DNA from: an uncultured Anaerolineales bacterium
GTDB taxonomy: Bacteria; Chloroflexota; Anaerolineae; Anaerolineales; UBA6663
Reading direction: 5' to 3'
DNA length: 64,000 nucleotides
Assembly: GCA_964608265.1 (NCBI GenBank)
Contig: CAZSNP010000011.1
Location: forward strand, 15,488-79,487
This document shows positions 17,542 to 59,231 of this stretch, piece after piece. The stretch's first letter is position 1. Each line of letters begins with the position of its first letter. Made by a program: the position numbers and the translations under genes. Below the pieces are notes generated by a model. It did no database searches. It was not told the DNA's origin and worked only from the letters and a program-made list of their open reading frames with translations.

Positions 17542-18231
17542 TTATCGATTGGCGAAGCGGTAGCCCACGCCGCGCGAGGTGATGATGTAGTCGGGGTGCT
17601 CGGGGTCGCGCTCGATCTTCTTGCGCAAGTAGTGCACGTACAGCTTCAAACTCTCGGTGGCCTCGTTGTACTCCGGCCCCCAGGCATGCGCGATGAGTTC
17701 GCTGCGGGTGAGGACGCGGCCGGCGTTGCGCGCCAGGTGCGAGAGCAAAGAAAACTCCTTCGGCGTCAGCTCGACCGACTTACCGCGCACGAACACCTCA
17801 CGCGTCAAAAAGTTGATCTGCAGATCGCCGTTGCTGAACGCCAACTCATCGGTGGCTTTGCTATCCGACGTCTGCCGGCGCAGGTGCGACTTCACCCGCG
17901 CGACCAACTCGCGATTGTCGAAGGGCTTGACGATGTAATCATCGCCGCCGATCTCCAGCCCTTTCACCACATCCTTGATCCCCGACTTGGCGGTGATGAA
18001 CATGATCGGGACCTCGGTGAATTCGCGCATGCGGCGACACACTTCCCACCCATCCATCTCGGGCATCATCACATCCAGCAGCACCATATCTGGCGTTTGC
18101 TCTTGCGCCATCCGTAGCCCTTCGGAGGCCAGGGCGGTTGTGATGGTCTGAAAACCGTTATGCTGCAACAGGGTACTGACGAGCCAGCAGGTGTTCTCGT
18201 CGTCATCAATCACCAGAATCTTGTTCGCCAT
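17542..18231 (-). CDS. OmpR-family response regulator
   Basis: Receiver domain (KILVIDDDE, LLDVMMPEMDG, FITAK) plus winged helix (LTPKEFSLLSHLARNAGRVLTR...VGYRF). No histidine kinase is adjacent. Confidence 0.9.
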   Translation of the reverse strand: MANKILVIDDDENTCWLVSTLLQHNGFQTITTALASEGLRMAQEQTPDMVLLDVMMPEMDGWEVCRRMREFTEVPIMFITAKSGIKDVVKGLEIGGDDYIVKPFDNRELVARVKSHLRRQTSDSKATDELAFSNGDLQINFLTREVFVRGKSVELTPKEFSLLSHLARNAGRVLTRSELIAHAWGPEYNEATESLKLYVHYLRKKIERDPEHPDYIITSRGVGYRFANR

Positions 18232-18369: not shown

Positions 18370-18375
18370 TACAAT
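18370..18375 (+). promoter_or_regulatory. Putative extended -10 (TGcTACAAT) in front of nurA
   Basis: TACAAT at 18370-18375 is preceded by TGC. ATG 18383 lies 7 nt downstream with no SD. The -35 is weak (TTTCTC). Confidence 0.3.
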
Positions 18376-19576
18376 GCCGCACATGGCGCTCGAACTCAAC
18401 AAGCTGATGGCCGATGTCAATGCGCTCAGTGGCAGCGCTGTGCAGCGATTGGCCGAGCAGGCCGAACGGCTGCCGGTGGCACGTGCCATCCTCAACGACA
18501 TCGCCGCCGCCGATGACGCCCTGCGCCGCAAGATCCGTGCGGCCGGCAACCGCTGGGCCGGCGCCATCCCCACCGACCAGGACGTCCATCGCCCGTATCC
18601 GCTGCCGCCGCATCCCGCGCGCGCCAACGTCCTTGCCGCCGATGGCTCGCAGATTTATCCCGACCGGCACGGCGTGGCGCTGTACTACCTCGTAAACGTC
18701 GGCAGCCTGATCTTTCGACATGGTTCGGGCGAGGCCCCGATCACGCAATCGCAGCCGCAGGTGTTTTTTGAAGATGCTGATTTGTATGATGAGGACGGCG
18801 GGCAGATCTCGGCGCAGCAGATCGATGTGCTGCGCGATGTGGGCGAACTCCGCGAGTTGGCGCGGCTCGCCCAACTCGAAGCGGCCTCCGCGCCCACGCT
18901 GGCGCTGCTCGACAATGGCTTGCTGTTGTACATCTCGCTGCAGGCCCAGAACCGCTCCGAGATCGAGGCCGCCCTGCGCCCGTACCTGCACGAACTCGAT
19001 GGATTGAAGGCCAGCGGCGCGGCGGTGGCCGGGGTGGTGGATCGCCCGCGCGCCTCGGGGGTGCTGCGGTTGTTGCACCTGCACACGCTCCACCTCGACG
19101 AGGTCGAGCAGCACGCCGAACGCTACAAATCGAGCCCAGCCTTCCGCCACCTCACTGATGCCATGCTCTTCAGCTTTTTGCAGCCCGGTGAACGCAGCGC
19201 GGTGTTCGAGAACGCCACGCCCGCCAACCGCGATCACTATCAGCCGCGCGGGCATTCGGTGCACTTCTTCTATCTCAACGCGGGCCGCCCCGGCAAAGAC
19301 GCGCTGCTCCGCATCGAGGTGCCCGAGTGGGTGGCTCACAATCCCGACCAGCTTGATTTTGTGCACGCCGCCATCGTCGAGCAGTGCCGTGTGAGCGATG
19401 GCTTTCCATATGTGTTGATGCGCGCGCACGAGCTAGCCGTCGTCACCGTGGCCGAGCGCCGCGAACTTGAGCAACTCGTCGTCGGCGCCCTTGTCCGGCG
19501 CGGCCTGCAGCCGAGCCTGTCGCAGAAGGCGCAGGGCAAGGTGTGGACGGGGGCGGGCGGGCAGAGAAATCCGTGA
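18374..19576 (+). CDS. nurA: NurA-domain nuclease (start at ATG 18374 or 18383)
   Basis: ANVLAADGSQIYPD (DGS motif), LALLDNGLLLYISLQ, and C-terminal DGFPYVLMRAHELAVVTVAERRE. These match NurA family signatures by eye. The N-terminal part of ORF 18191-19576 was rejected because it overlaps the divergent regulator. Confidence 0.7.
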   Translation: MPHMALELNKLMADVNALSGSAVQRLAEQAERLPVARAILNDIAAADDALRRKIRAAGNRWAGAIPTDQDVHRPYPLPPHPARANVLAADGSQIYPDRHGVALYYLVNVGSLIFRHGSGEAPITQSQPQVFFEDADLYDEDGGQISAQQIDVLRDVGELRELARLAQLEAASAPTLALLDNGLLLYISLQAQNRSEIEAALRPYLHELDGLKASGAAVAGVVDRPRASGVLRLLHLHTLHLDEVEQHAERYKSSPAFRHLTDAMLFSFLQPGERSAVFENATPANRDHYQPRGHSVHFFYLNAGRPGKDALLRIEVPEWVAHNPDQLDFVHAAIVEQCRVSDGFPYVLMRAHELAVVTVAERRELEQLVVGALVRRGLQPSLSQKAQGKVWTGAGGQRNP

Positions 19577-19602
19577 AGGGCAGCCCAGCACAGGGAGAGA
19601 CA

Positions 19603-20184
19603 ATGACCATTGGCCGCCTCCTCCGCAGTTCCACCACCGGCTTTGTCTTCGGCTGTCGCGTGGCTGAGGCCGATGTGCCGCGCTTCGGCGAGTTTGTCAA
19701 AGCGCCGGCGCAGCGCGGCCAGGCCGAGGTCATCGGCCTCGTCTACGACATCATCATGGAGGGCGATGCCTTTGTGCGCCAGATGGTGGCCGCGCCCGAC
19801 CTGACCGAGGAGTACGTGCAGGATATGCGCCTGAACCGCAGTGTGCCGATTGAGGTCAGCGTGCTGGCCATCGGTTACCGCAGCCACGATCAATGGGTGC
19901 AGTCGCTGCCGCCGCAGCCGCCGGTCACGCTCGACCGCATCAGCCTGGCCTCGATTGACGAAGTGGTGGAGTTCACCGCGCGCTTCGACTATCTGCGCCT
20001 GCTGCTCGACGCCTTCGACGCGCCGACCGACGAGCTCATCGCCACCTCGCTGCGCCAGGCTGCCGGGCTGCGCGCCCCGGCTGAGCGCAATCGCTTCCTG
20101 CGCGACGCGGGCCGCGAACTCGCCCGCCTGCTCAGCCGCGACCTGGCGCGTTTGGAAAACCTGCTGCGCCGGATCAAGCCGTGA
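19603..20184 (+). CDS. Stand-alone HAS-barrel-like protein with a helical C-terminal domain (function unknown)
   Basis: 193 aa from ATG 19603, with GGGAGAG upstream. The N-terminus MTIGRLLRSSTTGFVFGCRVAEADVPRFGEFVKAP..AEVIGLVYDII has the same pattern as the HerA N-terminal barrel encoded downstream. The C-terminal half is Arg/Leu-rich and helical. Confidence 0.5.
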   Translation: MTIGRLLRSSTTGFVFGCRVAEADVPRFGEFVKAPAQRGQAEVIGLVYDIIMEGDAFVRQMVAAPDLTEEYVQDMRLNRSVPIEVSVLAIGYRSHDQWVQSLPPQPPVTLDRISLASIDEVVEFTARFDYLRLLLDAFDAPTDELIATSLRQAAGLRAPAERNRFLRDAGRELARLLSRDLARLENLLRRIKP

Positions 20185-20299
20185 AGCTATGGGGACAGTT
20201 AGCGCAAGGACGCAATGAACGGCCTCCCTTTGCGCCGTTGCCTCTTCGCGCCTTTGCGTTATATCTGCTTTGAAAATGACAGCGCCGAAGGATTGACCA

Positions 20300-21994
20300 A
20301 TGACATCCCGCTCTGAAGACCGTGATTTCCTCCTCAACAACCGCAGCCCGCTGTTGCGCAACCGCCTGGGCCTCGTCATCGGCGGGTCGCTCTCGCAGGG
20401 ATTGGATGTCAAACTCGAAGTCGAAGACCTCAGCCGCGGGGTCCCGCTCGGCAGCCGCCTCGAGGGCATCGCCGTCGGCAAATATGTCGTCATCGATGGC
20501 AGCACGCGCCAGTTCTTCTCCATCGTCACCGACATCGCCCTCGACCACACCACGCCCGACCTGCTCAAATCGCCGCCGCCCGCCGACGATGATTTCGCCA
20601 AACAAGTCTACGGCGCCGAGCTGGCGTTTGGCCGGCTGCAGGTCGCGCCGATGCTGGTCTTCGATCAGGGCGACGACAAACCCAGGCCGGTCAAAACCAT
20701 CCCGACCCACTTCGCGCCGGTGTACGAGGCGACCGAGGACGACGTCAACCGCGTCTTTGGGCAGGAAGATGACGAACACTTCCACATCGGCACGCCGCTG
20801 GATATGGAGCGCGTCAAGGTCAACCTCGACCTCAAACGCTTCGTCGAGCGGTCGTCGGGCGTGTTCGGCAAGTCGGGCACCGGCAAGAGCTTCATCACCC
20901 GCACCATCCTCGGCGGCATCGTCAGGGCCGATGTGGCCTCGTGTTTGATCTTCGACATGCACAACGACTACGGCTGGAGCGTGCGCGACGAGCATGGGCG
21001 CGAGTTCAAGGGCCTGCGGCAGCTCTTCGATACGAGCAGGGTACAGGTGATCACGCTCGACCCGGAGACCTCGCGCCATCGCGGCAGCAGGACCGACGGC
21101 ACGCTGCAAATCGGCTGGGATCAGATCGAGCCGGAGGATGTGGAGATGTTGCAGGACATCCTCGGCCTGAGCGATGTGCAGGTCGGCTCGCTTTACTATC
21201 TGCACCGCAAGCTGCGCAAAGGCTGGATCGCCGAGCTGCTGCGCGAGGACGACAACAACGCCATCACCGAGATCGAAGAGTCGGAGAAGATTCAGAAGGG
21301 CACGCTGCGCGCTATCCAGCGCAAGTTTGAGTTCTTCCGCCGCTTCGGCTTTATGCGCGAGACCACGCCGCCCGACGACCTGGTCGAGTACATCTTCAAC
21401 GCCCTCAACCGCGGCATCAGCATCGTGCTGGAGTTTGGCGTGTACGGCAACACGCTGGCGGCATATGTGCTGGTGGCCAATTACCTCACGCGCCGCATCC
21501 ACGCGAAGTATGTGGACAAGAAGAACAAGGCTGCCGGGCGACAGGGCGAGGAGCCGAAGCCGCTGATCATCACCATCGAAGAGGCGCACAAGTTCCTCGA
21601 TCCCGAGATCGCCCAGCACACCATCTTCGGCAACATCGCCCGCGAGCTGCGCAAATACAACGTCACGCTGCTCATCGTCGATCAGCGCCCGAGCGGCATT
21701 GACGAGGAAGTGATGAGCCAGATCGGGACGCGCGTCACCTGTCTGCTCGACAACGAGGCCGACATCCGCGCGGTGTTCTCCGGCGTGAGCGGGGCGAACC
21801 AGTTGCGCGAGGTGCTCAGCCGTCTCGACACCCAGCAGCAGGCCCTCATCCTCGGCCACGCCGTGCCCATGCCCGTGGTCGTCAAGACGCGCGAGTACGG
21901 GCCGGAGCTTTACAAGGCGCTGGGCTTGGCCGACGAGGCGGCGGCGAAAGCGAAACGCAAGAAGGACAGCGCGGCGTTGTGGGGGGAAGAGTAG
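20300..21994 (+). CDS. herA: HerA/FtsK-like hexameric ATPase (DUF87 family)
   Basis: N-terminal barrel (LGLVIGGSLSQGLDVKLEV...GKYVVIDG). Walker A GVFGKSGTGKSF. IITIEEAHKFLDP. VTLLIVDQRPSGIDEEVMSQIGTRVTCLLDNEADIRAV. Confidence 0.85.
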   Translation: MTSRSEDRDFLLNNRSPLLRNRLGLVIGGSLSQGLDVKLEVEDLSRGVPLGSRLEGIAVGKYVVIDGSTRQFFSIVTDIALDHTTPDLLKSPPPADDDFAKQVYGAELAFGRLQVAPMLVFDQGDDKPRPVKTIPTHFAPVYEATEDDVNRVFGQEDDEHFHIGTPLDMERVKVNLDLKRFVERSSGVFGKSGTGKSFITRTILGGIVRADVASCLIFDMHNDYGWSVRDEHGREFKGLRQLFDTSRVQVITLDPETSRHRGSRTDGTLQIGWDQIEPEDVEMLQDILGLSDVQVGSLYYLHRKLRKGWIAELLREDDNNAITEIEESEKIQKGTLRAIQRKFEFFRRFGFMRETTPPDDLVEYIFNALNRGISIVLEFGVYGNTLAAYVLVANYLTRRIHAKYVDKKNKAAGRQGEEPKPLIITIEEAHKFLDPEIAQHTIFGNIARELRKYNVTLLIVDQRPSGIDEEVMSQIGTRVTCLLDNEADIRAVFSGVSGANQLREVLSRLDTQQQALILGHAVPMPVVVKTREYGPELYKALGLADEAAAKAKRKKDSAALWGEE

Positions 21995-22032
21995 TTGTGC
22001 TAGACTCAATGTGGTCAGGCTGGAGGTATGTC

Positions 22033-22293
22033 ATGCGAACTCTACAACTACAAACTCATGTCGGCTCCGATGGTCTCCTCAAGCTTGAGGTCCCCATTGG
22101 CCTGCGCAATATCGAACTAGAAGTGATTGTGATAGTACAGCCCCGCAAATCGGAGAATGGGGCTCAATACCGAACGCTGGAAGAGCTTGGCTGGCCGCCT
22201 GGTTTCTTTGAGCGAACCGCCGGCGCCTGGGCCGGCGAACCCATGGTGCGTGAGTCCCAGGGCACGTATGAAATCCGTGACGAGTTGGAATGA
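22033..22293 (+). CDS. vapB: VapB-type antitoxin (putative)
   Basis: 86 aa from ATG 22033, with GGAGG 6 nt upstream. The stop overlaps the PIN gene start (ATGA). Lower GC than the flanks. Confidence 0.55.
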   Translation: MRTLQLQTHVGSDGLLKLEVPIGLRNIELEVIVIVQPRKSENGAQYRTLEELGWPPGFFERTAGAWAGEPMVRESQGTYEIRDELE

Positions 22294-22693
22294 CATACCT
22301 GCTCGACACAAACACTTGCATCGACTTTCTCAATCGGCGCAACTCTCGGATCGAGGCGCGGCTAACGACCGTTGCGGTGAGCGAGGTGAGTCTGTGTTCT
22401 GTCGTGAAGGCAGAACTTTACCTTGGCGCATATCGTAGTTCGCAGCGTGAGAAGAATCTCGCATTGCTGGCAGACTTCTTTCCCCGTTTGTGAGCTATTC
22501 ATTTGACGACATTGCGAGCGAGGTGTATGGTCGTGTGCGCGCCGCGTTGATGAGTCAGGGACAGATCATTGGTCCAAATGACTTATTGATTGCGGCGATT
22601 GCGATTGCCAATGGTCTTACCCTCGTCACCCATAACGTACGCGAGTTCGGTCGGGTTTCTGGCCTTCAATTAGAAGATTGGGAAGCAGCATAG
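22290..22693 (+). pseudogene. vapC: PIN-domain VapC toxin split by a frameshift at about 22488-22493
   Basis: The first 67 aa (MTYLLDTNTCIDFLN...) end at TGA 22491-22493. The C-terminal half (SYSFDDIASEVYG...DLLIAAIAIANGLTLVTHNVREF) continues in another frame from 22490. Together they make about 134 aa, a normal PIN length. A sequencing error cannot be excluded. Confidence 0.72.
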
Positions 22694-22704
22694 CGAGAAC
22701 ATAA

Positions 22705-22733
22705 AAGCCCGAGCCATAGGCCCGGGCTTTTTT
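22705..22733. terminator. Bidirectional rho-independent terminator
   Basis: aagcccgagcc / ata / ggcccgggctt stem with 1 mismatch. TTTTTT follows on the plus strand and TTTTAT on the minus strand. It lies between the vapC end and the minus-strand pstB remnant end. Confidence 0.6.
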
Positions 22734-22735
22734 GT

Positions 22736-22855
22736 TCACCCAAACCTCCCCGTCACATACTTCTCCGTCGTCTCGTGTTTGGGGCGGGTGAAAATCTCGC
22801 CGGTCAGGTTGTACTCCACCAACTCGCCCAGCCAGAACAGGCCGGCGATGCTGCG
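22736..22855 (-). pseudogene. pstB: 3'-terminal fragment of a pstB-like ABC ATPase gene
   Basis: The minus strand encodes ...[33 protein letters not shown], the conserved PstB C-terminus. Upstream similarity stops at about 22855. Confidence 0.65.
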
Positions 22856-22859
22856 GCAG

Positions 22860-23225
22860 GCGGCATTGTGGGAGGAGGTGCACGACCGGCTCAACGCCTC
22901 GGCGTTCACGCTCTCGGGCGGGCAGCAGCAACGGCTGTGCCTGGCGCGCGTGCTGGCGCTCGAACCCGAAGTGGTGTTGCTCGACGAGCCGGCCTCCGGC
23001 CTCGACCCGATTTCGACGGCGAAGGTGGAAGAGTCATTGCAAGCCATCAAACAGGACTACACCATCGTCATCGTCCCGCACTCGGTGCAGCAGGGCGCGC
23101 GCATCGCCGACATGGCCGCGTTTTTTCTGCAGGGCGAACTGGTCGAATACGGCCCGGGCCGCGACATCTTTGTGACCCCGCACAACAAACGCACCGAGGA
23201 TTACGTGACCGGGCGCTTCGGCTAA
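22860..23225 (+). pseudogene. pstB: 5'-truncated pstB-like ABC ATPase gene (no Walker A)
   Basis: [50 protein letters not shown]...[32 protein letters not shown]...[10 protein letters not shown]. The signature, Walker B and H-loop are present, but the N-terminal roughly 110 aa are missing. Confidence 0.8.
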
Positions 23226-23284
23226 ACGGCCCGGTTGGGCGTGCTTTTGACGAAACACCCGAATCCGCGTACCCTGCGGCGTCT

Positions 23285-24514
23285 ATGACGCCGCTCACCC
23301 TCACGCCCCAACTCGCCCGCCGCCTCTTCATCCACAAGCAACGCCTGGCCGGGCCGGCGCCCGAGCCGAACGCAGCCGGCCTGCTCGACGTGGCGCGGGC
23401 GCTTCGCTGTTTGCAACTCGACCCGATCAGCGCGGTGGCGCGCAGCCATCAACTGGTGTTGTTCAGCCGCCTCGGGCCGTATGGCCTCGACCAGCTCGAT
23501 CAATTGCTCTGGCGTGATCGCGCGCTGTTCGAGTACTGGGCCCACTGCGCCTCGCTCGTGCTGACCGAAGACTTCGCCCTGCATCAGGCGCGGATGCGGG
23601 CCTACCCCTCGGGCGAGGGCGTGTGGAGCACACGGGCGCGCAAGTGGATCGGCGACAACGCCAGGCTCAAACGCTACATCCTCGGCCAGATCCGGAGACG
23701 CGGGCCGCTGCTCTCGCGCGACCTGGAAGAGGCCGGCCTCCAGCCCAAGGCCTGGGTCTCCACCGGTTGGACGTCGGGCCGCAACATCAGCCGGATGCTG
23801 GATTTTCTGTGGCTGTCGGGGCAGATCATGGTGACGGCGCGCCAGGGCGGGCAGAAGGTGTGGGATTTGGCGGAGCGCGTGCTGCCCGAGTGGACGCCGC
23901 GCGAGAAGCTGCGCGAACCCGAGGTGACGCGGCGCGCCATCGAGCACTCGCTGCGCGCGCTGGGCGTAGGCGCCGAGCGGCACATCAAGTATCACTTCGT
24001 GCGCGGGCGCTATCCTCACTTCAACGAGGCGATGGCTGAGCTGACACGCGAGAAGAGGATTCGAGGCGTGGAGATCAAGGGCTGGCCCGGGCAGTGGTAT
24101 CTCCACGCTGACGACGAGCCGCTGCTCGACGAATCACGCCTGGCGCCTCACGCGCCCCGCACCGCCCTCCTCTCCCCTTTCGACAACCTCATCGCCGACC
24201 GCGCCCGCACCAAGTTGATGTTCGACTTCGATTTCCGCATCGAGATCTACGTGCCGCCGGCGAAACGCAAGTACGGCTATTACGTGCTGCCCATCCTGCA
24301 CGGCGATCAACTCATCGGACGGATCGACCCGCAGCTGGATCGGGAGGCCGGTTGCCTGCGGGTGAACGCCGTGTACGCGGAACCCGGCGCGCCGCGCGAG
24401 GCCGGGCCGAACGTGGCCCGCGCGGTGCAATCGCTGGCGCAGTTTCTCTCCGCCCGCGAAATCCGCTACAATCGCCGGCGCGTTCCCGTGTTCTGGAAAA
24501 AAGCGCTTCAGTAG
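23285..24514 (+). CDS. YcaQ/AlkZ-family winged-helix DNA glycosylase (DUF1006; interstrand-crosslink repair)
   Basis: 410 aa from ATG 23285. LRCLQLDPISAVARSHQLVLFSR carries the Q-phi-D motif. Also LFEYWAHCASLV and YYVLPILHGDQLIGRIDP. Confidence 0.72.
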   Translation: MTPLTLTPQLARRLFIHKQRLAGPAPEPNAAGLLDVARALRCLQLDPISAVARSHQLVLFSRLGPYGLDQLDQLLWRDRALFEYWAHCASLVLTEDFALHQARMRAYPSGEGVWSTRARKWIGDNARLKRYILGQIRRRGPLLSRDLEEAGLQPKAWVSTGWTSGRNISRMLDFLWLSGQIMVTARQGGQKVWDLAERVLPEWTPREKLREPEVTRRAIEHSLRALGVGAERHIKYHFVRGRYPHFNEAMAELTREKRIRGVEIKGWPGQWYLHADDEPLLDESRLAPHAPRTALLSPFDNLIADRARTKLMFDFDFRIEIYVPPAKRKYGYYVLPILHGDQLIGRIDPQLDREAGCLRVNAVYAEPGAPREAGPNVARAVQSLAQFLSAREIRYNRRRVPVFWKKALQ

Positions 24515-24560
24515 ACCGCCGACGGCGGACCACAGACCGCCGTCCGCGTCGCTCATCCTC

Positions 24561-25820
24561 ATGCCCGACCCCATCCGCGCCCTGCACTTCGCCGACCTCC
24601 ATGTGGGCATGGAGAACTACGGCAAGATCGATCCGGCCACCGGCATCTCCAGCCGCATCCGTGATTTCCTCGACCGCCTCGATGAGGTCATCGGCTACGC
24701 GGAAGCGCACGACGCCGACCTGGTGCTGTTCGCGGGCGATGCGTTCAAAACGCGCGACCCCGACCCGACGCAGCAACGCGAGTTCGCGCGCCGCATCAAA
24801 CGGCTGGCCGAGCGCGCGCCGGTGCTGCTGCTCGTCGGCAACCACGATGTGCCCGGCATCGCCGCGCGCGCCACCTCGATTGACATCTTCACCACGCTCG
24901 ACGTGCCCAACGTCATCGTCGGGCGCAAGCCCGGCACGCAAGTGGTGCAGACGAGGCGCGGGCCGGTCTTCCTGGCGTGGATGCCCTTCCCGGTGCGCAG
25001 CCGGATGCTGGCCAATGAAACCTACGGCTCGATCGAAGAGCTCGATCGCGCCGTGGAGAAGGCCGTGCACGGCACGCTGGCCGACTTTGCGCGGGAGGCG
25101 GCGGAGCACGACATGCCGCGCGTGCTCGCGGGCCACTTCTCGGTGGGCGGCGCGGTCTTCGGCAGCGAACGGAGCGTGATGGTGGGCCGCGACCTCCTCA
25201 TCCAAAAATCCGCCCTCGCCGACCCGGCCTGGGATTACGTGGCGCTGGGGCACATCCACAAGCATCAAGACTTGACTGCCTCGGAACGAGGGCGCGGGGG
25301 TGAGGGCGAGCTGCGGGTCCCTCCCATCGTCTACTCCGGTTCGCTCGAACGCATTGACTTCGGCGAGGAGGTGGAGCCGAAGGGATTCTGCTGGCTCAAC
25401 CTGCAACGCGGCGCGACGACGTGGGAGTTCGTGCGCGTGGCGGCGCGGCCCTTTCACACCTTGCGCCTCGACGCGCGCGGCGAAGCCGACCCGACCGCGC
25501 TGGTCTGTGACCGGGTCGCGGCCCGCGAGCTGACCGGCGCGGTTGTGCGCGTGACGATTGAGCTGGACGAGGGCCAGGAGCCGCTGCTGCGCAAGCGCGA
25601 GGTCGAGGCCGCCCTGACCGAAGCGGGTGTGGCCACCATCGCCGGCATCACGCTCGAGGTCGAGCGAACCGTGCGGGTGCAGGGCATCGGGGCGAACGCC
25701 GAGGCGCTGACACCGCAACAATGGCTGCACCGTTACTTTGATGCGAAGAGCAAACCGCCGGAGCGGATCGAGAAATTGATGCAGGCCGCTCAAGGATTGC
25801 TGGACGGGGACACAGCATGA
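24561..25820 (+). CDS. sbcD: SbcD/Mre11 family nuclease
   Basis: Calcineurin-like phosphoesterase motifs: ALHFADLHVG, LFAGDAFK, LLVGNHD, VLAGHF and LGHIHKHQ. Confidence 0.87.
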   Translation: MPDPIRALHFADLHVGMENYGKIDPATGISSRIRDFLDRLDEVIGYAEAHDADLVLFAGDAFKTRDPDPTQQREFARRIKRLAERAPVLLLVGNHDVPGIAARATSIDIFTTLDVPNVIVGRKPGTQVVQTRRGPVFLAWMPFPVRSRMLANETYGSIEELDRAVEKAVHGTLADFAREAAEHDMPRVLAGHFSVGGAVFGSERSVMVGRDLLIQKSALADPAWDYVALGHIHKHQDLTASERGRGGEGELRVPPIVYSGSLERIDFGEEVEPKGFCWLNLQRGATTWEFVRVAARPFHTLRLDARGEADPTALVCDRVAARELTGAVVRVTIELDEGQEPLLRKREVEAALTEAGVATIAGITLEVERTVRVQGIGANAEALTPQQWLHRYFDAKSKPPERIEKLMQAAQGLLDGDTA

Positions 25821-25844
25821 GAACGTTGTGCATGATTGCGGCTC

Positions 25845-25944
25845 GCCCTCACCCCCGGCCCCTCTCCCAGCGGGAGGGGGGAGGGGCCTCGGAATGGTCA
25901 ACCCTGACTCCCTCTCCCGGAGGGAGAGGGCAGGGATGAGGGCG
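25845..25944. repeat. MITE/REP-like element, copy 1
   Basis: Left end GCCCTCACCCCC, right end GGGATGAGGGCG (near-inverted). Internal hairpins are cccctctccc/agcg/ggagggggg and a perfect ccctctccc/gga/gggagaggg at 25910-25930. Confidence 0.7.
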
Positions 25945-25955
25945 AAACCTGCGCC

Positions 25956-28217
25956 ATGATTCCTCTGCGCCTGGAACTCACCAATTTCCTCGCGTACCGC
26001 AATCCCGCGCCGCTGGATTTCACCGGGCTGCACGTGGCCGTGCTCACCGGCGAGAACGGCGCAGGCAAATCGTCGCTGCTCGATGCGCTGACGTGGGTGC
26101 TATGGGGCAAGGCCCGCGCGCGGCGCGATGATGAGCTGGTGCATCAGGGCCAGAGCGAGATGAGCGTGACCTTCACCTTCGCGCTCGGCGCGGATGTGTA
26201 CCGGGTGCGACGCGCCAAGCGCGCCGGCAAAGCGACCGGCGGCGTGCTCGATCTGCAGGCGCAGGTCGAGGGCAAATGGACCTCGCTCACCGAGGCCACC
26301 ATCCCCAGGACGCAGGACAAGATCACGCGCCTGCTGCGGCTGAACTACGATACCTTCGTCAACTCGGCCTACCTCCTGCAGGGTCACGCGGATGAGTTCA
26401 CCGGCAAGAAGCCGGCCGAGCGCAAACAGGTGCTGGCCGACATCCTCGGCCTGCAGGCGTGGGACGACTACGCCGACCGCGCGAAGGAGAAAATCAAAGC
26501 CTTCGACCAGCAACTGGCCGAGTTGGAGGGCCGACTGGTCGAGATCGAAAACGAGTTGGCCCGGCGTGACGACTACGAGCGCGAGCTGGGCGAGGCCAGG
26601 ACGCGCGTGATCGAAGTGGCCGAGCGCCTGCGGACGGCGGAGGGGGAGTGGGCGGGGATCGAGGCGGCGCGGCAGGCGCTGCTGACGCTGACCCGGCAGG
26701 CGGAGGACCTGGCGCGGCGGGTGCGAGGGGCGGAGGCTGAACTGGCGACGCTGGAGGCCGACCTGCGCGAGGCCCAGGCGCGCGCGGACGCGGCGACACT
26801 GGCGCATGACCTGCGCACGACCGAGCGCCGGCTGGCGCAACTGGAGGAGGTCGAAGGCGAGCGCGAGCGAACGGCCGAGGCGCGGCGCGTGACGGGCGAG
26901 CTGGCGGCGCAACTGCGCGGGCAAAACGACTCGGCCCAGGCCGAAGGCGAGGCGCTGAAGAAACGCATCGAGAGCGTGAGCGCGGAGGCCAACCAGGCCA
27001 AGAAGCGCCTGCACGAGTCGCTGCGCGGCGAGGTCGGCAGACTCGAACAGCGCGTCGCCAACCTGCGCAGCGCCACCGAGGCGGTGTGCCCGACGTGCGG
27101 GCAGCCGCTCACCGAGCCGCAACGCGCCGACCTCATCGAGCAACTGCTGGCCGAGGCCGAGGCGCGCACCACCCAATCCAAAGCCGAAGAGCACGCGCTC
27201 GAATCCCGCCTCAGCCAGACTCTGGCCGAACTCAACGCCGAGGTCGAGGCGCGGCGCGACCTCTATCGCCAAAACCAGCTGCAATTGAAAACGCTGGGCG
27301 ATGAGCAGGCGCGGATGGAACGCGACCTGCAGGCCTTCGCGCTGGAGTTACGCGACCAGCCGGCGCTGGCCGGGCGGCTGGGCGAGTTGCGGGCCGCGCT
27401 CGACCAGGCCGGCGCCGCGCAGGAAAAGATCGCCGAGCTGTTGAAGCGGCGCGACCGCTGGGCCAAAGCGCGCGATGAGGATGCGCGGACACAGACGCAG
27501 GTGGAGGCCGAGGCCGCGCAGCACCGCGCGGTGTTGCAGACCGCCGATGCAAAGCAACGCACGCTCGACGCGCTGCGACAAGAGGATACGCTGGCCAAAG
27601 CGCGGCTGGGCGCGGCGGAACAGAAGCTACGGGCCCTCGACACGCTGGCCCGGCAACGCGAAGCGCGCCGCGCCGAACGGCTGACGCTGGCCGAGGCCAG
27701 GGGACTGCACGAGGAGTTGCGCGAAGCGTTCGGCAAGCGCGGTGTGCCGGCCATGATCATCGAGACCGCCGTGCCCGAGATCGAGGCGGAGGCCAACCGT
27801 TTGTTGGGCCGCATCACCGACGGGCGCATGGCGTTGCGTTTCAAATTGCAGAAGGAGACCCAGGCCGGCGACGTGCGTGAGACGCTCGACATCGAGATCG
27901 CCGATGAGTTGGGCACACGGGCGTATGAAATGTACTCGGGAGGGGAGGCATTTCGGGTCAACTTCGCCATCCGCATCGCGCTCAGCCAGTTGCTGGCGCG
28001 GCGGGCCGGCACGCAATTGCACACGCTCATCATTGACGAGGGCTTCGGCGTGCTCGATGCGGCGGGCCGCGAACGGCTGGTGGAGGCCATCAACGCCGTG
28101 CAGGATGACTTCGACCGCATCCTGGTGGTCACGCACATCGCCGAACTCAAGGATGCTTTCCCCGCGCGCATCGAGGTGACCAAAGGGCCGAATGGGTCGG
28201 AGATCACGGTGCAGTAA
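25956..28217 (+). CDS. sbcC: SbcC/Rad50 family ATPase
   Basis: P-loop LTGENGAGKSSLLDAL. Long A/E/R/L-rich coiled coil. Zinc hook CPTCGQPL. Signature YSGGEAFRVNFAIRIAL. Walker B LIIDEGFGVLD. Confidence 0.87.
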   Translation: MIPLRLELTNFLAYRNPAPLDFTGLHVAVLTGENGAGKSSLLDALTWVLWGKARARRDDELVHQGQSEMSVTFTFALGADVYRVRRAKRAGKATGGVLDLQAQVEGKWTSLTEATIPRTQDKITRLLRLNYDTFVNSAYLLQGHADEFTGKKPAERKQVLADILGLQAWDDYADRAKEKIKAFDQQLAELEGRLVEIENELARRDDYERELGEARTRVIEVAERLRTAEGEWAGIEAARQALLTLTRQAEDLARRVRGAEAELATLEADLREAQARADAATLAHDLRTTERRLAQLEEVEGERERTAEARRVTGELAAQLRGQNDSAQAEGEALKKRIESVSAEANQAKKRLHESLRGEVGRLEQRVANLRSATEAVCPTCGQPLTEPQRADLIEQLLAEAEARTTQSKAEEHALESRLSQTLAELNAEVEARRDLYRQNQLQLKTLGDEQARMERDLQAFALELRDQPALAGRLGELRAALDQAGAAQEKIAELLKRRDRWAKARDEDARTQTQVEAEAAQHRAVLQTADAKQRTLDALRQEDTLAKARLGAAEQKLRALDTLARQREARRAERLTLAEARGLHEELREAFGKRGVPAMIIETAVPEIEAEANRLLGRITDGRMALRFKLQKETQAGDVRETLDIEIADELGTRAYEMYSGGEAFRVNFAIRIALSQLLARRAGTQLHTLIIDEGFGVLDAAGRERLVEAINAVQDDFDRILVVTHIAELKDAFPARIEVTKGPNGSEITVQ

Positions 28218-28314: not shown

Positions 28315-28569
28315 ATGCCGCGTCAAATCCTGAACGAACCGACCGAAGTCGAGGCGCGATTTAGCCCGGATGGCGCGGTGCGCGTGCTGGCCTTCCGCTG
28401 GAAAAACCGCCGCTGGCCGGTGGTGAGCCAGGGCCGCCAATCTACCAAGGACGGGCGGCTGCACACCCTGGTGATGACGACGCGCGACCGCGTGTACGAG
28501 CTGGCCTACGACCCCGCCACGCAGCAATGGTCGGTGGTCATGGCGTCGGAAGACCGCCTGGTGGGGTAG
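28315..28569 (+). CDS. Hypothetical small protein (84 aa)
   Basis: ORF with plausible composition directly upstream of mtaD (10-nt gap). No family recognised. Confidence 0.4.
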   Translation: MPRQILNEPTEVEARFSPDGAVRVLAFRWKNRRWPVVSQGRQSTKDGRLHTLVMTTRDRVYELAYDPATQQWSVVMASEDRLVG

Positions 28570-29916: not shown

Positions 29917-30065
29917 GCCGAGAATGGTGCCGTGTGGCGTTGGCGTTTGGGAGTACGATACGTTGGTGGTGTTGGGGCGGTGGGTGAATAGCATAGAGGA
30001 ACGTAAGTGATACATGCAAACAGGCCGGCTATATGCCGTCTTGCAGTTGTCCGATCCGAGAGAGG

Positions 30066-31118
30066 CTATCGAACCCGTTTCAGTGATGAAGCGACAACTT
30101 CAAAGGCCTTCTGATTGGGCGCGAAAATCGTGACATACGTGCCGTCGAGTAAAGCGCTGCCGCGGAAAGGCCCAAACATAGTCGTAGTCTCCCACTTTGT
30201 TCCGTTGATTTGAATCACATTCGACTCGACCAAAGAGGGAATTTGATCGGTCCGCGTCTGATTCAGAACAACCGAGTCGGGGGGCAACCCAGAGATGACT
30301 TGCACTTCGCTAGCATCACCACGATAGATCATGTAATAACCATCGCTCGCCAACCCATCGCTTGATGAAAAACGCCTAAATTCCGCAATCAATTCACCGA
30401 CGCTCGCTGTGGTCTCATACACCGCATACTCCAGAGCCGGATCGATCCTGTTTGCTGCAAAATACTCCTCTCGATTGACATCAGTAGGTAAGTCTATCTG
30501 AAAGGCATCCTTCGGTACCTGCGAGCGAGGAATATACTCCAATACTGAATATTTAGTCTCGACAATTTGTGCTGATTGACCGGGTTGCGCGGCTTCCTCA
30601 CGCAGTGCCAAGCCTGTTTCACTGTCCAAATAAGCACTTATCGTAGTATCGTCCATAGGCATCTGGACAACTGTGGCCGGTTGTCCATTGATGTGTTCAG
30701 AGGCTACAGTTCGCGCCAAGCCACGTTCGGTCGCAGTCCGGTAAGACAGCACTTGCTCACGGATATAGGTGGACTGGGCCACATCATGACGGATAACAGC
30801 GAAGTTGGCGTCAATCGTATAACTAACATAGGTATCTCCTAATTGCGACGTAATGTGCCGCACTTTGCCATCAGCTGAGGAAACGACAACTTTGCCCTCG
30901 TTGCTAGCCAGGTCCAACCAAACCTCCAACAATTCCGTAGCCCTATTGCCGGTCTTCTCAGCCTGAAAGTGTAGCACTTGATCGTTTGGCAGAGCGCCAA
31001 AGGGGGAATTGGCTCGGCTCACCTGGATTCCGAGCCATATCACTACACCTAAAAGCAATGTGCCCAGAGCGATACTTCGAAGAAGGTGCCTTTTGAAGAA
31101 CATGGGTGCCCTAAACAT
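30066..31118 (-). CDS. Hypothetical membrane-anchored extracytoplasmic protein
   Basis: N-terminal anchor LLRSIALGTLLLGVVIWLGIQV. No family recognised with confidence; the C-terminus is vaguely DUF4367/LolA-like. Lower-GC codon usage. Confidence 0.55.
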   Translation of the reverse strand: MFRAPMFFKRHLLRSIALGTLLLGVVIWLGIQVSRANSPFGALPNDQVLHFQAEKTGNRATELLEVWLDLASNEGKVVVSSADGKVRHITSQLGDTYVSYTIDANFAVIRHDVAQSTYIREQVLSYRTATERGLARTVASEHINGQPATVVQMPMDDTTISAYLDSETGLALREEAAQPGQSAQIVETKYSVLEYIPRSQVPKDAFQIDLPTDVNREEYFAANRIDPALEYAVYETTASVGELIAEFRRFSSSDGLASDGYYMIYRGDASEVQVISGLPPDSVVLNQTRTDQIPSLVESNVIQINGTKWETTTMFGPFRGSALLDGTYVTIFAPNQKAFEVVASSLKRVR

Positions 31119-31165
31119 ATCAGCCTCCTTGCACGTGAGATGAATTAACTTACTTCACCTGTTCG

Positions 31166-31846
31166 CTACGGAACGTTGATGTACTTGGCCCATCCATCAC
31201 CGGCAATCCACCAGCCATTACACTGTTGAACTGCCGCGTTATTTCCCATCCACTGCCATCCCCATGAGTGAGTGCCACTCATGCCGGATACAATGTGATC
31301 CCGCCCCCCATTAAACGTGTCCGCGATGTGTGTACACCAAGTCCATAAGTCGCGATGAGCAGGGCCCATTGTGTAAGTGCCCCAGAAAGAACCCCCACTG
31401 TCCATGCTCTGGTTATAGCGCTGGTGCCACCGCTGAGATGCAAATAAATTACCGTCAGCTCGTTGGTCTTGCTGTACCTCCATCACGCCGTGATCCTTAA
31501 ACCATAACGGACCCCCACTGGAATGACTCCAATTAAAATGATAGCTTATCTCCCACAAGACTGTACTTTCCCACGCGTTGTTCATGAAAATGACATTTAC
31601 TGGGTCTTTGATGGCGCAGTTGCCGCCACTACCATTGCACCCGTAAATCCATGGATCGGGGCCAAAGTGTGCATCTGCCGATTTGACTTGAATTGCCAGG
31701 GTGCTTAATAGAAAGGCTGCAATAGTGAGAAGACGAACAACTCTATGCATTGTGAAGGGGTTCATGTTCTTATTGAGCATGTGGCTTTCTCCCGGGCCAT
31801 CAATCTGGTTTGCTATCGTTCGTAAGAACGTGTTGTGGAAACGCAC
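31166..31846 (-). CDS. Hypothetical secreted Trp/His-rich protein (start uncertain)
   Basis: Signal-like VVRLLTIAAFLLSTLAIQVKSADA. The mature part is W-rich (WGWQWMGNN, GWWIAGDGW). DPVNVIF and CTHIADTFNGGRDH are faintly LssY_C-like, which I could not verify. Confidence 0.5.
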   Translation of the reverse strand: MRFHNTFLRTIANQIDGPGESHMLNKNMNPFTMHRVVRLLTIAAFLLSTLAIQVKSADAHFGPDPWIYGCNGSGGNCAIKDPVNVIFMNNAWESTVLWEISYHFNWSHSSGGPLWFKDHGVMEVQQDQRADGNLFASQRWHQRYNQSMDSGGSFWGTYTMGPAHRDLWTWCTHIADTFNGGRDHIVSGMSGTHSWGWQWMGNNAAVQQCNGWWIAGDGWAKYINVP

Positions 31847-31917
31847 TGATGACCGTATTCCAATCTCGTTGCCGATGCAAGAGTCTAAAGCCCCAATTTC
31901 CTCCCAACCTTGCTGCC

Positions 31918-32529
31918 TTAACTGTTATTACGACGACTCGCGAGTCCATGCTCCCATGCCCAACGTGCTACTTGCACGCGGTTGTCCACTCCCAGCTTTT
32001 CCATGATCGTGCTGACATGCCTTTTGACCGTCTTCTCACTGACTACCAATCGTTGCGCGATAGCGGGATTGGTCAGCCCGTCGGCGATCAACAGCAGGAT
32101 TTCACGTTCTCGCGTGGTGAATGACGCCAACGCCCTTGCCATCCAAGTCTCCACCGCATGTTGCAGGGCAGCTTCCAAATTCTCCGAAAGGGCGGTCGCG
32201 CCGCCGTCTCGGGCCAAAAACCGCAGCGCGCCAGCGTGCGTAGCACGCTGGCGCGCTATGTCAGTGGTCGCCGAAGTGACGAGCGCAAGGATCGGCGCCT
32301 GGGGATAAGCGCGCATCAGGTCAGCCCAGCGCTCTCGCTCCATTGCATTGGGCGTCTCCAAATCCACCAACATTAAGGCAGCCTGCGCCGTGAGACAACA
32401 CCGGGCTGCACTCTCCAAAGTCTGGCAGTGCCCGGCCAGTACGTATTCAGTGTGATCGGTCAACCATGCAGTAATTTGATGGGCAAGTGCTTCATCCCCG
32501 CTGATCAATAGGATTGCATGGGTTGGCAT
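31918..32529 (-). CDS. LuxR/NarL-family response regulator
   Basis: Receiver-like N-terminus (ILLISGDE, LMLVDLETPN). C-terminal HTH REREILLLIADGLTNPAIAQRLVVSEKTVKRHVSTIMEKLGV. Confidence 0.8.
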   Translation of the reverse strand: MPTHAILLISGDEALAHQITAWLTDHTEYVLAGHCQTLESAARCCLTAQAALMLVDLETPNAMERERWADLMRAYPQAPILALVTSATTDIARQRATHAGALRFLARDGGATALSENLEAALQHAVETWMARALASFTTREREILLLIADGLTNPAIAQRLVVSEKTVKRHVSTIMEKLGVDNRVQVARWAWEHGLASRRNNS

Positions 32530-57961: not shown

Positions 57962-58112
57962 AATTATTCCGAAAGTAAAAGGCAGGCGGAAAGGAACGGG
58001 CACACGCCCCATGGCAATTTGCTCACGTACGTGGCAACAATGGCTGAAACAGCCACCCAGACTGTTGGTGTCCAGCCGGTTTTGGAGTCGAGGCTACATT
58101 CATCACCGCAGG

Positions 58113-59219
58113 TTAGGGTGGTGGATAACCTTGTGGACACCCTGGGAGACAGGTTGGTGTTCGCGTTGGCGTCCGCGTTGGGGTAGGAGTTGAAAAAGGA
58201 GTATTGGTTCGAGTGGGTGTCCTCGTAGCCGTGGATGTTGGCGTAGGAGTGGGCGCCTCGTGTTTCAAGATAATCGGCAAAAAATCCCAGCCACACGAAT
58301 AATGATGATTCTGTGGCGTATCAATATACTGAGGTGGGGGATTAGAAATCAGCGACCGATTAGGCAGCGTAAGTGCCATTGGGCCCCAAAACGCAATTGC
58401 TTGCCCACCACTTTGATATGTAGGAGGATTTGCCGCACATCCCCAAATTAACTCCTGATAAGGCCAGTTCGCACGAGTTTGACCGCCTTGACCACATTGC
58501 CATGAACTACGCGGCCACGGGAATCGTGGGTTATTGGGGTTATTGATGTACCCAAATCCATTGTAAGCCCAGACAGCGTAGTACCAGTTTTCCACAATCA
58601 TCGGATCGTTTTGGCCGATATTGTGATCAAAGTCGAATATGATGCCATTCCATTTTCGTTGAAGGATGAGGGTGCCGGTTCCAATGTTGTAAACAGGTTC
58701 TGCCGCAACGCGACTCGGGCTGAATAGGCCTCCGAGTCCATCATTCATGCCTGAAGTGATTTGCATGATTCCATAGCCGCAGTCAGCGCTTATGTATGTG
58801 TTACCGATGCTACCGTAAGTAGATACATTGAATTGGAACCAACCTGTAACTTCGGTATAGCCAATGGCTTTCAGGAGTATGCAGGGCGCATAGGCGCGAT
58901 GATTGGCGTTGCCATTGCGATTTATCGGATAGCCTGACCACAACCGAGCTTGACCTGGGCCGCTGCTACCCAAGTTGTTAAGACCAGCCTGGTCGAATGA
59001 TGGAGCCAACTCAGATGGAAAGGGTTGCCGGCCACTCGCTGCAGGCTGAGGGCAAGTTTGAGCATTACATGTGGTTGGGACAGCCGTAGCAACAAGGGCC
59101 AGCGCGATTACGAGCGCGACACAACCAAAGAGCAGATAGCGAAGTACGGATCTAAGCGTGTTCGGCACTAACGGGTTGGCGTTTAGCATAGGATTTACCC
59201 TCCCACAAGCCAAATGCAA
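58113..59219 (-). CDS. Secreted lysozyme-like / lytic transglycosylase-like protein with a C-terminal Pro/Thr tail (start uncertain)
   Basis: N-terminal anchor LLFGCVALVIALALVATAV. GYGIMQITSG and AVWAYNGFGY resemble the SLT G-L-M-Q and A-Y-N-x-G motifs. Tail TPTPTSTATRTPTRTNTPFSTPTPTRTPTRTPT. Lower GC. Confidence 0.45.
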   Translation of the reverse strand: MHLACGRVNPMLNANPLVPNTLRSVLRYLLFGCVALVIALALVATAVPTTCNAQTCPQPAASGRQPFPSELAPSFDQAGLNNLGSSGPGQARLWSGYPINRNGNANHRAYAPCILLKAIGYTEVTGWFQFNVSTYGSIGNTYISADCGYGIMQITSGMNDGLGGLFSPSRVAAEPVYNIGTGTLILQRKWNGIIFDFDHNIGQNDPMIVENWYYAVWAYNGFGYINNPNNPRFPWPRSSWQCGQGGQTRANWPYQELIWGCAANPPTYQSGGQAIAFWGPMALTLPNRSLISNPPPQYIDTPQNHHYSCGWDFLPIILKHEAPTPTPTSTATRTPTRTNTPFSTPTPTRTPTRTPTCLPGCPQGYPPP

Positions 59220-59231
59220 AAGCCTGAGCAG

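Follow-up and report, generated by a model that had tools for sequence, protein, structure and literature searches.

The nurA-U193-herA module is a set of three adjacent genes in a 64,000-nt stretch of contig CAZSNP010000011.1 from an Anaerolineales bacterium (hereafter the window; all coordinates are window positions). It encodes a NurA-family nuclease, an unannotated 193-aa protein called U193 here, and a HerA-family ATPase, and it is followed by genes for an AlkZ-like DNA glycosylase (alkZ), SbcD, and SbcC. We judge it probable, at about 70%, that this block is a native chromosomal DNA-repair cluster of Anaerolineales-type Chloroflexota with nurA-U193-herA as its core. The three genes are regarded as the core because U193 is constantly found between the other two. 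A first-pass annotation of this DNA named nurA, herA, and the three downstream genes but overlooked the 193-aa open reading frame (ORF) at 19603-20184, so its inventory lacked the third gene of the nurA-herA module. U193 is the only new element of the cluster; taken alone, the five annotated genes and the toxin-antitoxin (TA)/pstB insertion that splits them are ordinary.

U193 and its place between nurA and herA

The module consists of the following genes:

18374-19576, plus strand: nurA, NurA-family nuclease with an RNase H-like fold (PF09376, E 4.6e-24); probable true start at 18383.
19603-20184, plus strand: U193, unannotated 193-aa protein with an N-terminal domain that looks HAS-barrel-like and a C-terminal helical bundle.
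20300-21994, plus strand: herA, hexameric ATPase/translocase of the HerA/FtsK superfamily (PF01935/DUF87, E 7.5e-31).

Two sets of loci were used to follow the module through relatives: 80 loci seeded with HerA from species-level genomes and 80 seeded with U193 from metagenomes (closer alignment A2), all scored by tblastn and hidden Markov model (HMM) searches with the window proteins. Every locus that carries all three genes (75/75) has them in the same order and on the same strand, with U193 between nurA and herA, and the gap from nurA to U193 is at most 200 nt in 71 of these. The triad is recovered in the U193-seeded loci as well as in the HerA-seeded ones, and neither set holds a locus with nurA but no U193. 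Upstream of herA, nurA-U193 is present in 53 of the 76 loci that have at least 3.5 kb of sequence there. Loci without the pair are interspersed in the HerA tree among loci that have it, a pattern that suggests uncoupled orthologues and not a separate paralogous clade.

The module is also found in remote genomes, where identity to the window proteins is 29-34% for NurA, 32-35% for U193, and 33-46% for HerA. A metagenome-assembled genome (MAG) labelled Clostridia contains a tight nurA-U193-herA-sbcD-sbcC operon (L165). A second remote locus reads nurA-U193-herA-sbcC (L168) and a third has the triad only (L169); in both, the stops and starts of the triad genes overlap or abut.

U193 is encoded 26 nt 3' of nurA and 115 nt 5' of herA. 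It has no match in Pfam, NCBIfam, or PADLOC at default thresholds, and all of its 568 homologues in a 90%-identity collection are named "hypothetical". An exhaustive HMMER scan places the family at 681 clusters at 50% identity, nearly all of about 200 aa and reaching down to about 30% identity. Ratios of nonsynonymous to synonymous substitution (dN/dS) against relatives are 0.17-0.5, the same range as for nurA and herA. U193 is a real gene under purifying selection. Its relatives are absent from IMG/VR viral contigs, PLSDB plasmids, and GenBank phages.

The AlphaFold2 model of U193 (mean predicted local distance difference test score, pLDDT, 78; predicted template modelling score 0.75) has a beta-barrel at its N-terminus, followed by a C-terminal helical bundle that is predicted well. 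In a Foldseek search of the PDB with this model, all 50 top matches are HerA chains, with E-values of 3e-5 to 1e-3 over about 135 columns; they come from TdpA, SIR2-HerA, DUF4297-HerA, the Thermococcus HerA-NurA complex, and Deinococcus HerA. There is no viral fold match. Pfam HAS-barrel gives weak matches in 16 of 44 diverse family members, the best at 2.5e-5 and the window copy at 0.024 (residues 19-52). Together these matches suggest that U193 looks like a free-standing HAS-barrel-like protein without an ATPase domain.

It could be argued that U193 is what remains of a duplicated herA, an N-terminal stub that plays no part in a complex, or that its HerA-like fold is a modelling artefact. 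Confidence in the modelled barrel is moderate. Sequence similarity between U193 and HerA is not significant; the best profile-profile alignment falls on HerA's own HAS-barrel stretch. PDB sequence searches gave no useful match for U193, even with family profiles, and yielded no solved structure or characterised homologue. Both explanations are nevertheless very unlikely, since the dN/dS of U193 is comparable to that of nurA and herA and the length of the protein is conserved across the 681 clusters. In addition, its position is invariant in the 75 loci and in remote genomes, and the Pfam HAS-barrel matches were obtained independently of the model.

U193 is joined to HerA in one locus (L015:3915-6146), where it reads in frame into HerA without a stop (…LLPQIGQTMSGARPLGVVVGG…). 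This may be a natural fusion, and as a single MAG contig it could also be an error. An iterative HMM of U193 that came to match every HerA was discarded, as its profile had been contaminated by this single reading frame. Two apparent NurA-U193 fusions (P0359, P0363) were rejected as frameshifted read-throughs of adjacent genes. U193-like proteins of about 32-36% identity are also encoded outside any nurA/herA context, at L166:5792-6421 and L167:7001-7639. One follows an AAA_15 ATPase and DUF4276 pair; the other lies in a run of small uncharacterised genes, with a ParB-like gene and a group II intron reverse transcriptase nearby.

Gene content of the block and the insertion after herA

Genes were called from an ORF map and identified by Pfam, NCBIfam, and PADLOC profile searches of the window proteins. 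The remaining features in and around the block are:

17542-18231, minus strand: OmpR-type response regulator (Response_reg and Trans_reg_C), divergent from nurA; context, membership unproven.
22036-22293, plus strand: putative antitoxin of 85 aa of the inserted TA cassette, named by position; its stop overlaps the PIN start.
22290-22693, plus strand: vapC (PIN) pseudogene with a frameshift near 22490, read as two 67-aa ORFs (22290-22493 and 22490-22693) in different frames.
22697-22737, no strand: bidirectional intrinsic-terminator hairpin, probable (inverted repeat I3, T-runs on both strands).
22739-22849, minus strand: pstB 3' remnant, a 37-aa C-terminal tail found by tblastn, inverted relative to the next fragment.
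22848-23225, plus strand: pstB 3' remnant of 125 aa (C-terminal half); it retains the LSGGQ signature and Walker B and lacks Walker A.
About 23276 to 24514, plus strand: alkZ, YcaQ-like (YQL-type) DNA glycosylase of the AlkZ family (PF06224, E 9.3e-59, 200 bits; LQLD).
24561-25820, plus strand: sbcD, Mre11-family nuclease (TIGR00619; Metallophos, E 9e-14).
25956-28217, plus strand: sbcC, Rad50-family ABC ATPase of 753 aa with a zinc hook and a short coiled coil (AAA_23, SMC_N, PF04423, PF13558).
28315-28569, plus strand: small 84-aa ORF 3' of sbcC; cluster membership uncertain.

The first-pass annotation identified the five named products as NurA, HerA, a YcaQ/AlkZ-like protein, SbcD, and SbcC. 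All five identities hold at the coordinates given here, and the motifs it quoted are present in the translations. The five genes are co-oriented on the plus strand within 10 kb, as it had said, and span 9.85 kb. At the edges of the block, the OmpR-type regulator also stands beside nurA in close relatives (L007-L010), and a regulatory link is possible. The 84-aa ORF has no Pfam match; its counterpart in L005 is 82% identical and begins 8 nt 3' of sbcC, so it could be a further small operon member.

NurA matches PF09376 with 85.7 bits (gathering cut-off 21 bits) over model positions 2-254 of 254. The earlier annotation had staked its case on a NurA profile match for ORF 18374-19576, and the match found is full length and accompanied by a fold match to Sulfolobus NurA. 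The AlphaFold2 model (pLDDT 80) has Sso NurA 2ygk as its top PDB fold match (E 1.9e-9), followed by PIWI and EndoV folds. No solved NurA is matched in a PDB sequence search, even with a family profile. Asp-90 (in DGSQ), Glu-158, and Asp-180 are invariant in 27 orthologues, and His-352 alternates with Asp in the motif RA[H/D]E; they were equated with the archaeal catalytic residues from the motif pattern alone, as no PDB NurA aligns by sequence. NurA orthologues from Anaerolineales are already named "DNA double-strand break repair nuclease NurA" at NCBI. In relatives the protein starts with MALELNKL, at the second ATG (18383). The end of a TACAAT hexamer lies only 9 nt upstream of this ATG, and the transcript may therefore be leaderless or have a very short leader. 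Residues 2-60 of the model (18374-18553) form a long N-terminal helical hairpin before the RNase H-like core.

HerA contains the motifs GKSGTGKS, IEEAH, and LLIVDQRPS. Its Walker A (Gly-190 to Ser-197), Walker B (Glu-427 to His-430), and DQRPS (461-465) segments are invariant in 21 orthologues. The HAS-barrel domain PF09378 is matched weakly at residues 51-85 (17.7 bits against a cut-off of 25.2), and some orthologues carry a precomputed PF09378 match. HerA scores 93.5 bits against NF040937 and 90.1 bits against NF042943, the equivalogs for archaeal double-strand break (DSB) repair and anti-phage HerA, for which the cut-off is 800 bits each. Among PDB sequences, a SIR2-associated HerA is the closest match.

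Across the 120 best database matches, identity to HerA does not fall below 67%, and relatives occur in at least 597 species-level genome loci. The best 80 of these genome loci belong to MAGs of Anaerolineae-type Chloroflexota except for L031, L078, and L084, which carry other labels and may be mis-binned. Homologues of the window proteins carry the names "Anaerolineales bacterium" or "Chloroflexi bacterium". An identical HerA is found on six JGI metagenome contigs, and the four that were retrieved (L001-L004) share the window's gene order, down to the split PIN gene.

The AlkZ-like protein has a match to the PF06224 HTH_42 domain. A Q-phi-D motif defines the YQL proteins (PMC9040887), and the LQLD of the window protein fits it. 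SbcD passes the bacterial sbcd model TIGR00619 (105.4 bits against a cut-off of 77.65) and carries the motifs DLHVG, GDAFK, GNHD, and GHIH. SbcC has AAA_23/SMC_N at its N-terminus, SbcC_Walker_B (PF13558) at its C-terminus, and Rad50_zn_hook (PF04423, E 8.8e-8) at residues 356-402, together with a CPTC hook and SGGE. Its score against TIGR00618 is 290 bits, under the cut-off of 478.5, which fits a short protein of 753 aa.

The block is split between herA and alkZ by a low-GC VapBC module and pstB debris, as the first-pass annotation described; this is borne out by the PIN ORFs, the pstB fragments, and a GC that drops from about 0.65 in the flanks to 0.54 at 22000-22499. The putative antitoxin has no Pfam or NCBIfam match, and its homologues lie beside PIN genes after herA in L008, L009, L086, and L102. 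The PIN profile is matched at positions 1-58 and 80-118, one stretch in each of the two 67-aa ORFs and in different frames, so no intact toxin is encoded. The split is identical in four independent metagenome contigs (L001-L004); because of this, the vapC frameshift is a property of the population and not an assembly error. The orthologue in L086 is intact and in one frame.

The hairpin after vapC has a predicted RNA folding energy of -25.8 kcal/mol (z = -6.85) and is followed by UUUUUUGUU. It probably arrived with the insertion and terminates transcription in both directions. The first-pass annotation listed neither this hairpin nor the inverted minus-strand pstB fragment. The two pstB fragments next to it are arranged head-to-head and both lack the 5' half; they share 54% amino-acid identity and no similarity at the DNA level. 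The plus-strand fragment covers positions 86-136 of the 137 in the ABC_tran profile. No complete pstB is encoded anywhere else in the window, and pstB debris is absent from L005 and L086. The fragments look like the debris of a rearrangement that involved two different pstB copies.

Other relatives have a different history at this site and at the other junctions. In L086 an intact VapB-VapC pair lies exactly at the herA/alkZ junction without pstB debris, and in L005 this junction is empty. L010 has a different insertion at herA/alkZ, L007 has one at alkZ/sbcD, and L126 has one at sbcD/sbcC, each of 1-3 kb. The earlier idea of an insertion hotspot is reasonable, given different insertions at the junctions in L005, L007, L010, L086, and L126.

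Because the VapBC cassette, the terminator, and the two pstB remnants follow herA, the block is made up of at least two transcription units. To judge from the sequence, nurA-U193-herA(-vapB-vapC') and alkZ-sbcD-sbcC are very probably separate transcripts. An uninterrupted four-gene operon is not found in the window, where the TA cassette, terminator, and pstB remnants intervene; the arrangements in L165 and L005 are tight. A simple promoter scan of the window did no better than shuffled sequences, and the window contains no Cheo-type LexA box, Rfam family, or tRNA.

Two further low-GC islands lie elsewhere in the window, at 30000-32000 (0.50) and 58000-60000 (0.51), against about 0.64 in the rest. 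The first carries unannotated minus-strand ORFs at 30066-31118 and 31166-31846 and varies among metagenome variants, with a gene of 188 aa in L001 and of 226 aa in L003.

Linkage to SbcCD and the evidence for repair

Linkage downstream of herA was counted over the 52 loci with at least 6 kb of sequence 3' of herA:

alkZ, sbcD, and sbcC after herA: L005, L007, L010, and L126 (the window's own clade, with a HerA identity of 67% or more).
sbcD-sbcC after herA: L049.
sbcD only after herA: L044.
alkZ only after herA: L104.
None of alkZ, sbcD, or sbcC after herA: 45 of the 52 loci.

Linkage of herA to alkZ-sbcDC is clade-specific and sporadic (7/52), yet it recurs in separate lineages and in remote genomes. 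Conserved linkage in relatives had been set as a test of the first-pass annotation, and it is seen in some of them, although with alkZ-sbcDC it appears in only these seven of the 52 loci and is interrupted by a terminator in the window itself. Shorter loci add an sbcD-sbcC pair in Ardenticatenales (L050), sbcD in L039, and sbcC in L036; these three, like L044 and L049, represent Anaerolineae outside the window's clade. In L005 the herA stop overlaps the GTG start of alkZ, and herA-alkZ-sbcD-sbcC and the 84-aa ORF follow one another with gaps of at most 60 nt; herA-alkZ-sbcD-sbcC looks like a single operon there. The alkZ gene occurs within the block in the window's clade only.

These counts bear on the possibility that the adjacency is a lineage-specific accident, in which nurA-U193-herA, the glycosylase, and SbcCD are independent neighbours and the block is no unit. 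Such a reading agrees with the 45 relatives that lack the downstream genes, with the restriction of alkZ to one clade, with the strong terminator and junk DNA between herA and alkZ in the window, and with the different insertions at every junction in relatives. It is unlikely, however, in view of sbcD and/or sbcC directly after herA in at least five separate lineages, of which the remote ones have overlapping or closely spaced genes. The five packed genes of L005 also argue against it, as does the same arrangement in Oceanithermus and in archaeal operons.

A second alternative is that the block, or at least nurA-U193-herA, serves in anti-phage or anti-plasmid defence, with HerA capturing foreign DNA and NurA acting as the effector nuclease. 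SIR2-HerA, DUF4297-HerA, and TdpAB would be its models. HerA matches PADLOC HerA models (best 1.8e-36), it fits the NCBIfam anti-phage equivalog as well as the archaeal repair one, and its top PDB sequence match is SIR2-associated. A TA cassette lies within the block, and one remote U193-like protein adjoins the AAA_15 and DUF4276 pair. Against this, both equivalog scores are about 90 bits where 800 are required, and PADLOC returns generic HerA and ABC-ATPase matches only, with none for NurA, U193, AlkZ, or SbcD. The recurrent partner of the module is sbcCD and not a set of defence genes.

The surroundings of the block also speak for repair. Its GC of 0.63-0.69 is like that of the rest of the window, and the flank with thiolase, arginase, and response-regulator genes is syntenic in relatives. 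DNA repair is favoured over anti-phage defence because of this native GC and the conserved housekeeping neighbourhood. The first-pass annotation had kept a defence role in view; it is disfavoured by the core-genome synteny across many species, the native GC, the strong conservation, and the absence of U193 from viral and plasmid collections, and we consider it distinctly improbable.

Several observations weigh against a repair cluster built on nurA-U193-herA. By sequence, HerA is equally far from repair and anti-phage HerAs, and every activity assigned to these Chloroflexota proteins is deduced from family membership. In about one third of the HerA-seeded loci nurA-U193 is not within 10 kb of herA, and the 45 loci without downstream partners mean that the five functions are not obligatorily linked. 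The likeness of U193 to HerA comes from one AlphaFold2 model with a barrel pLDDT of 50-82 and TM-scores of 0.35-0.47, and a profile-profile comparison with this HerA family gave no significant sequence similarity. Finally, the two remote U193-like proteins (L166, L167) stand in unrelated contexts.

Proposed mechanism and known systems

In a repair cluster of this kind, and by analogy with the archaeal and Deinococcus complexes, the HerA hexamer would translocate duplex DNA, starting at a broken end, and pass it to a NurA dimer for degradation. NurA binding in the Deinococcus complex occurs through the HAS-barrel domain (PMC9960219). If the solved complexes are a guide, the NurA dimer would dock on the ring of HerA HAS-barrel domains (PMC9960219), and U193 may join the complex at this face of HerA as an adaptor, a gate, an extra ring, or a regulator. 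A position at the HerA-NurA interface is the most economical hypothesis for U193 because the protein resembles the docking domain and is encoded between both partners. Its genomic association with nurA and herA is observed directly, and its physical role is our proposal.

The co-location of the other genes has a possible rationale in the supply of breaks. The YcaQ-type glycosylase would unhook interstrand crosslinks and remove N7-alkylguanines, leaving repair intermediates that can become breaks, and SbcCD would open blocked or hairpin ends. Both activities may feed breaks to the resection module. In close relatives herA-alkZ-sbcD-sbcC is packed like one operon, into which the VapBC cassette, the terminator, and the pstB remnants were presumably inserted after herA in the window.

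More speculatively, nurA-U193-herA may encode an undescribed three-component end-resection machine. U193 would be a stoichiometric subunit, a ring or adaptor that gates DNA entry or nuclease activation; the genes would ancestrally have formed a nurA-U193-herA-sbcD-sbcC operon, and the machine might be the main DSB-resection pathway of Anaerolineae-type Chloroflexota. This stronger proposal is tentative, and we hold the odds to be somewhat against it.

The closest known bacterial systems are the NurA-HerA pair of Deinococcus radiodurans (DR_0836/DR_0837) and NurA-HepA of Thermus. Like the window genes, they are chromosomal and have nurA upstream of herA. Their domains correspond: an RNase H-like nuclease in NurA, and in HerA a RecA-like ATPase with a helix bundle and a HAS barrel, the last of which is matched weakly in the window protein (PMC5448004, PMC9960219). 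They consist of two genes, with the Thermus nurA stop overlapping the hepA start, whereas U193 lies between the two in the window and its relatives. D. radiodurans HerA is remote and does not appear among the PDB sequence matches of the window HerA at E ≤ 1e-3. In Oceanithermus profundus sbcD-sbcC follow nurA-hepA, as they do the module in the window, and this is a published bacterial precedent (PMC5448004). With this precedent and the NurA names already in use at NCBI, the earlier description of the locus as unusual for bacteria was overstated.

The archaeal herA-mre11-rad50-nurA operon clusters the same four activities in one orientation, and the best structural match of the window NurA model is Sulfolobus NurA. 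The label "archaeal-style" given in the first-pass annotation is apt for this gene content. It does not extend to the gene order, which is nurA-U193-herA-[alkZ]-sbcD-sbcC in the window, with U193 and a glycosylase as additions and with an interruption. Nor does it extend to the proteins, as those of the window score far under the cut-offs of the archaeal Mre11/Rad50 and HerA equivalogs (about 90 bits against 800 for HerA), and SbcD passes the bacterial sbcd model.

The anti-phage systems SIR2-HerA/Nezha, DUF4297-HerA, and TdpAB share with the module a HerA-family hexameric ATPase with a docking effector. Chains of SIR2-HerA, DUF4297-HerA, and TdpA are the top structural matches of U193, and a SIR2-associated HerA is the top sequence match of HerA. 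The window differs in having NurA as its effector rather than SIR2, DUF4297, or TdpB, in matching no PADLOC system, and in a module that is conserved in the core genome and linked to sbcCD. The glycosylase belongs with the E. coli YcaQ/YQL subfamily by its full-length PF06224 match and its LQLD motif (PMC9040887). The neighbourhoods described for YQL genes in Streptomyces and E. coli contain neither herA nor sbcCD (PMC9040887), whereas the window gene lies between herA and sbcD. We found no papers on NurA/HerA in Chloroflexi or on a stand-alone HAS-barrel partner, in a literature coverage that was incomplete.

The module is a known kind of system in three-component form, and what is new is the constant third gene between nurA and herA. 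Work on NurA-HerA in archaea and in Deinococcus-Thermus has dealt with a machine of two proteins; a large, little-studied bacterial class seems to encode a third partner as well, one that is constant and resembles the very HerA domain that binds NurA. If U193 is a real subunit, the model of how bacterial NurA-HerA is built would change, and the protein would offer a handle on the coupling of motor and nuclease. The recurrence of nurA-X-herA-sbcD-sbcC in distant bacteria strengthens the case for cooperation between HerA-NurA and Mre11-Rad50 outside archaea.

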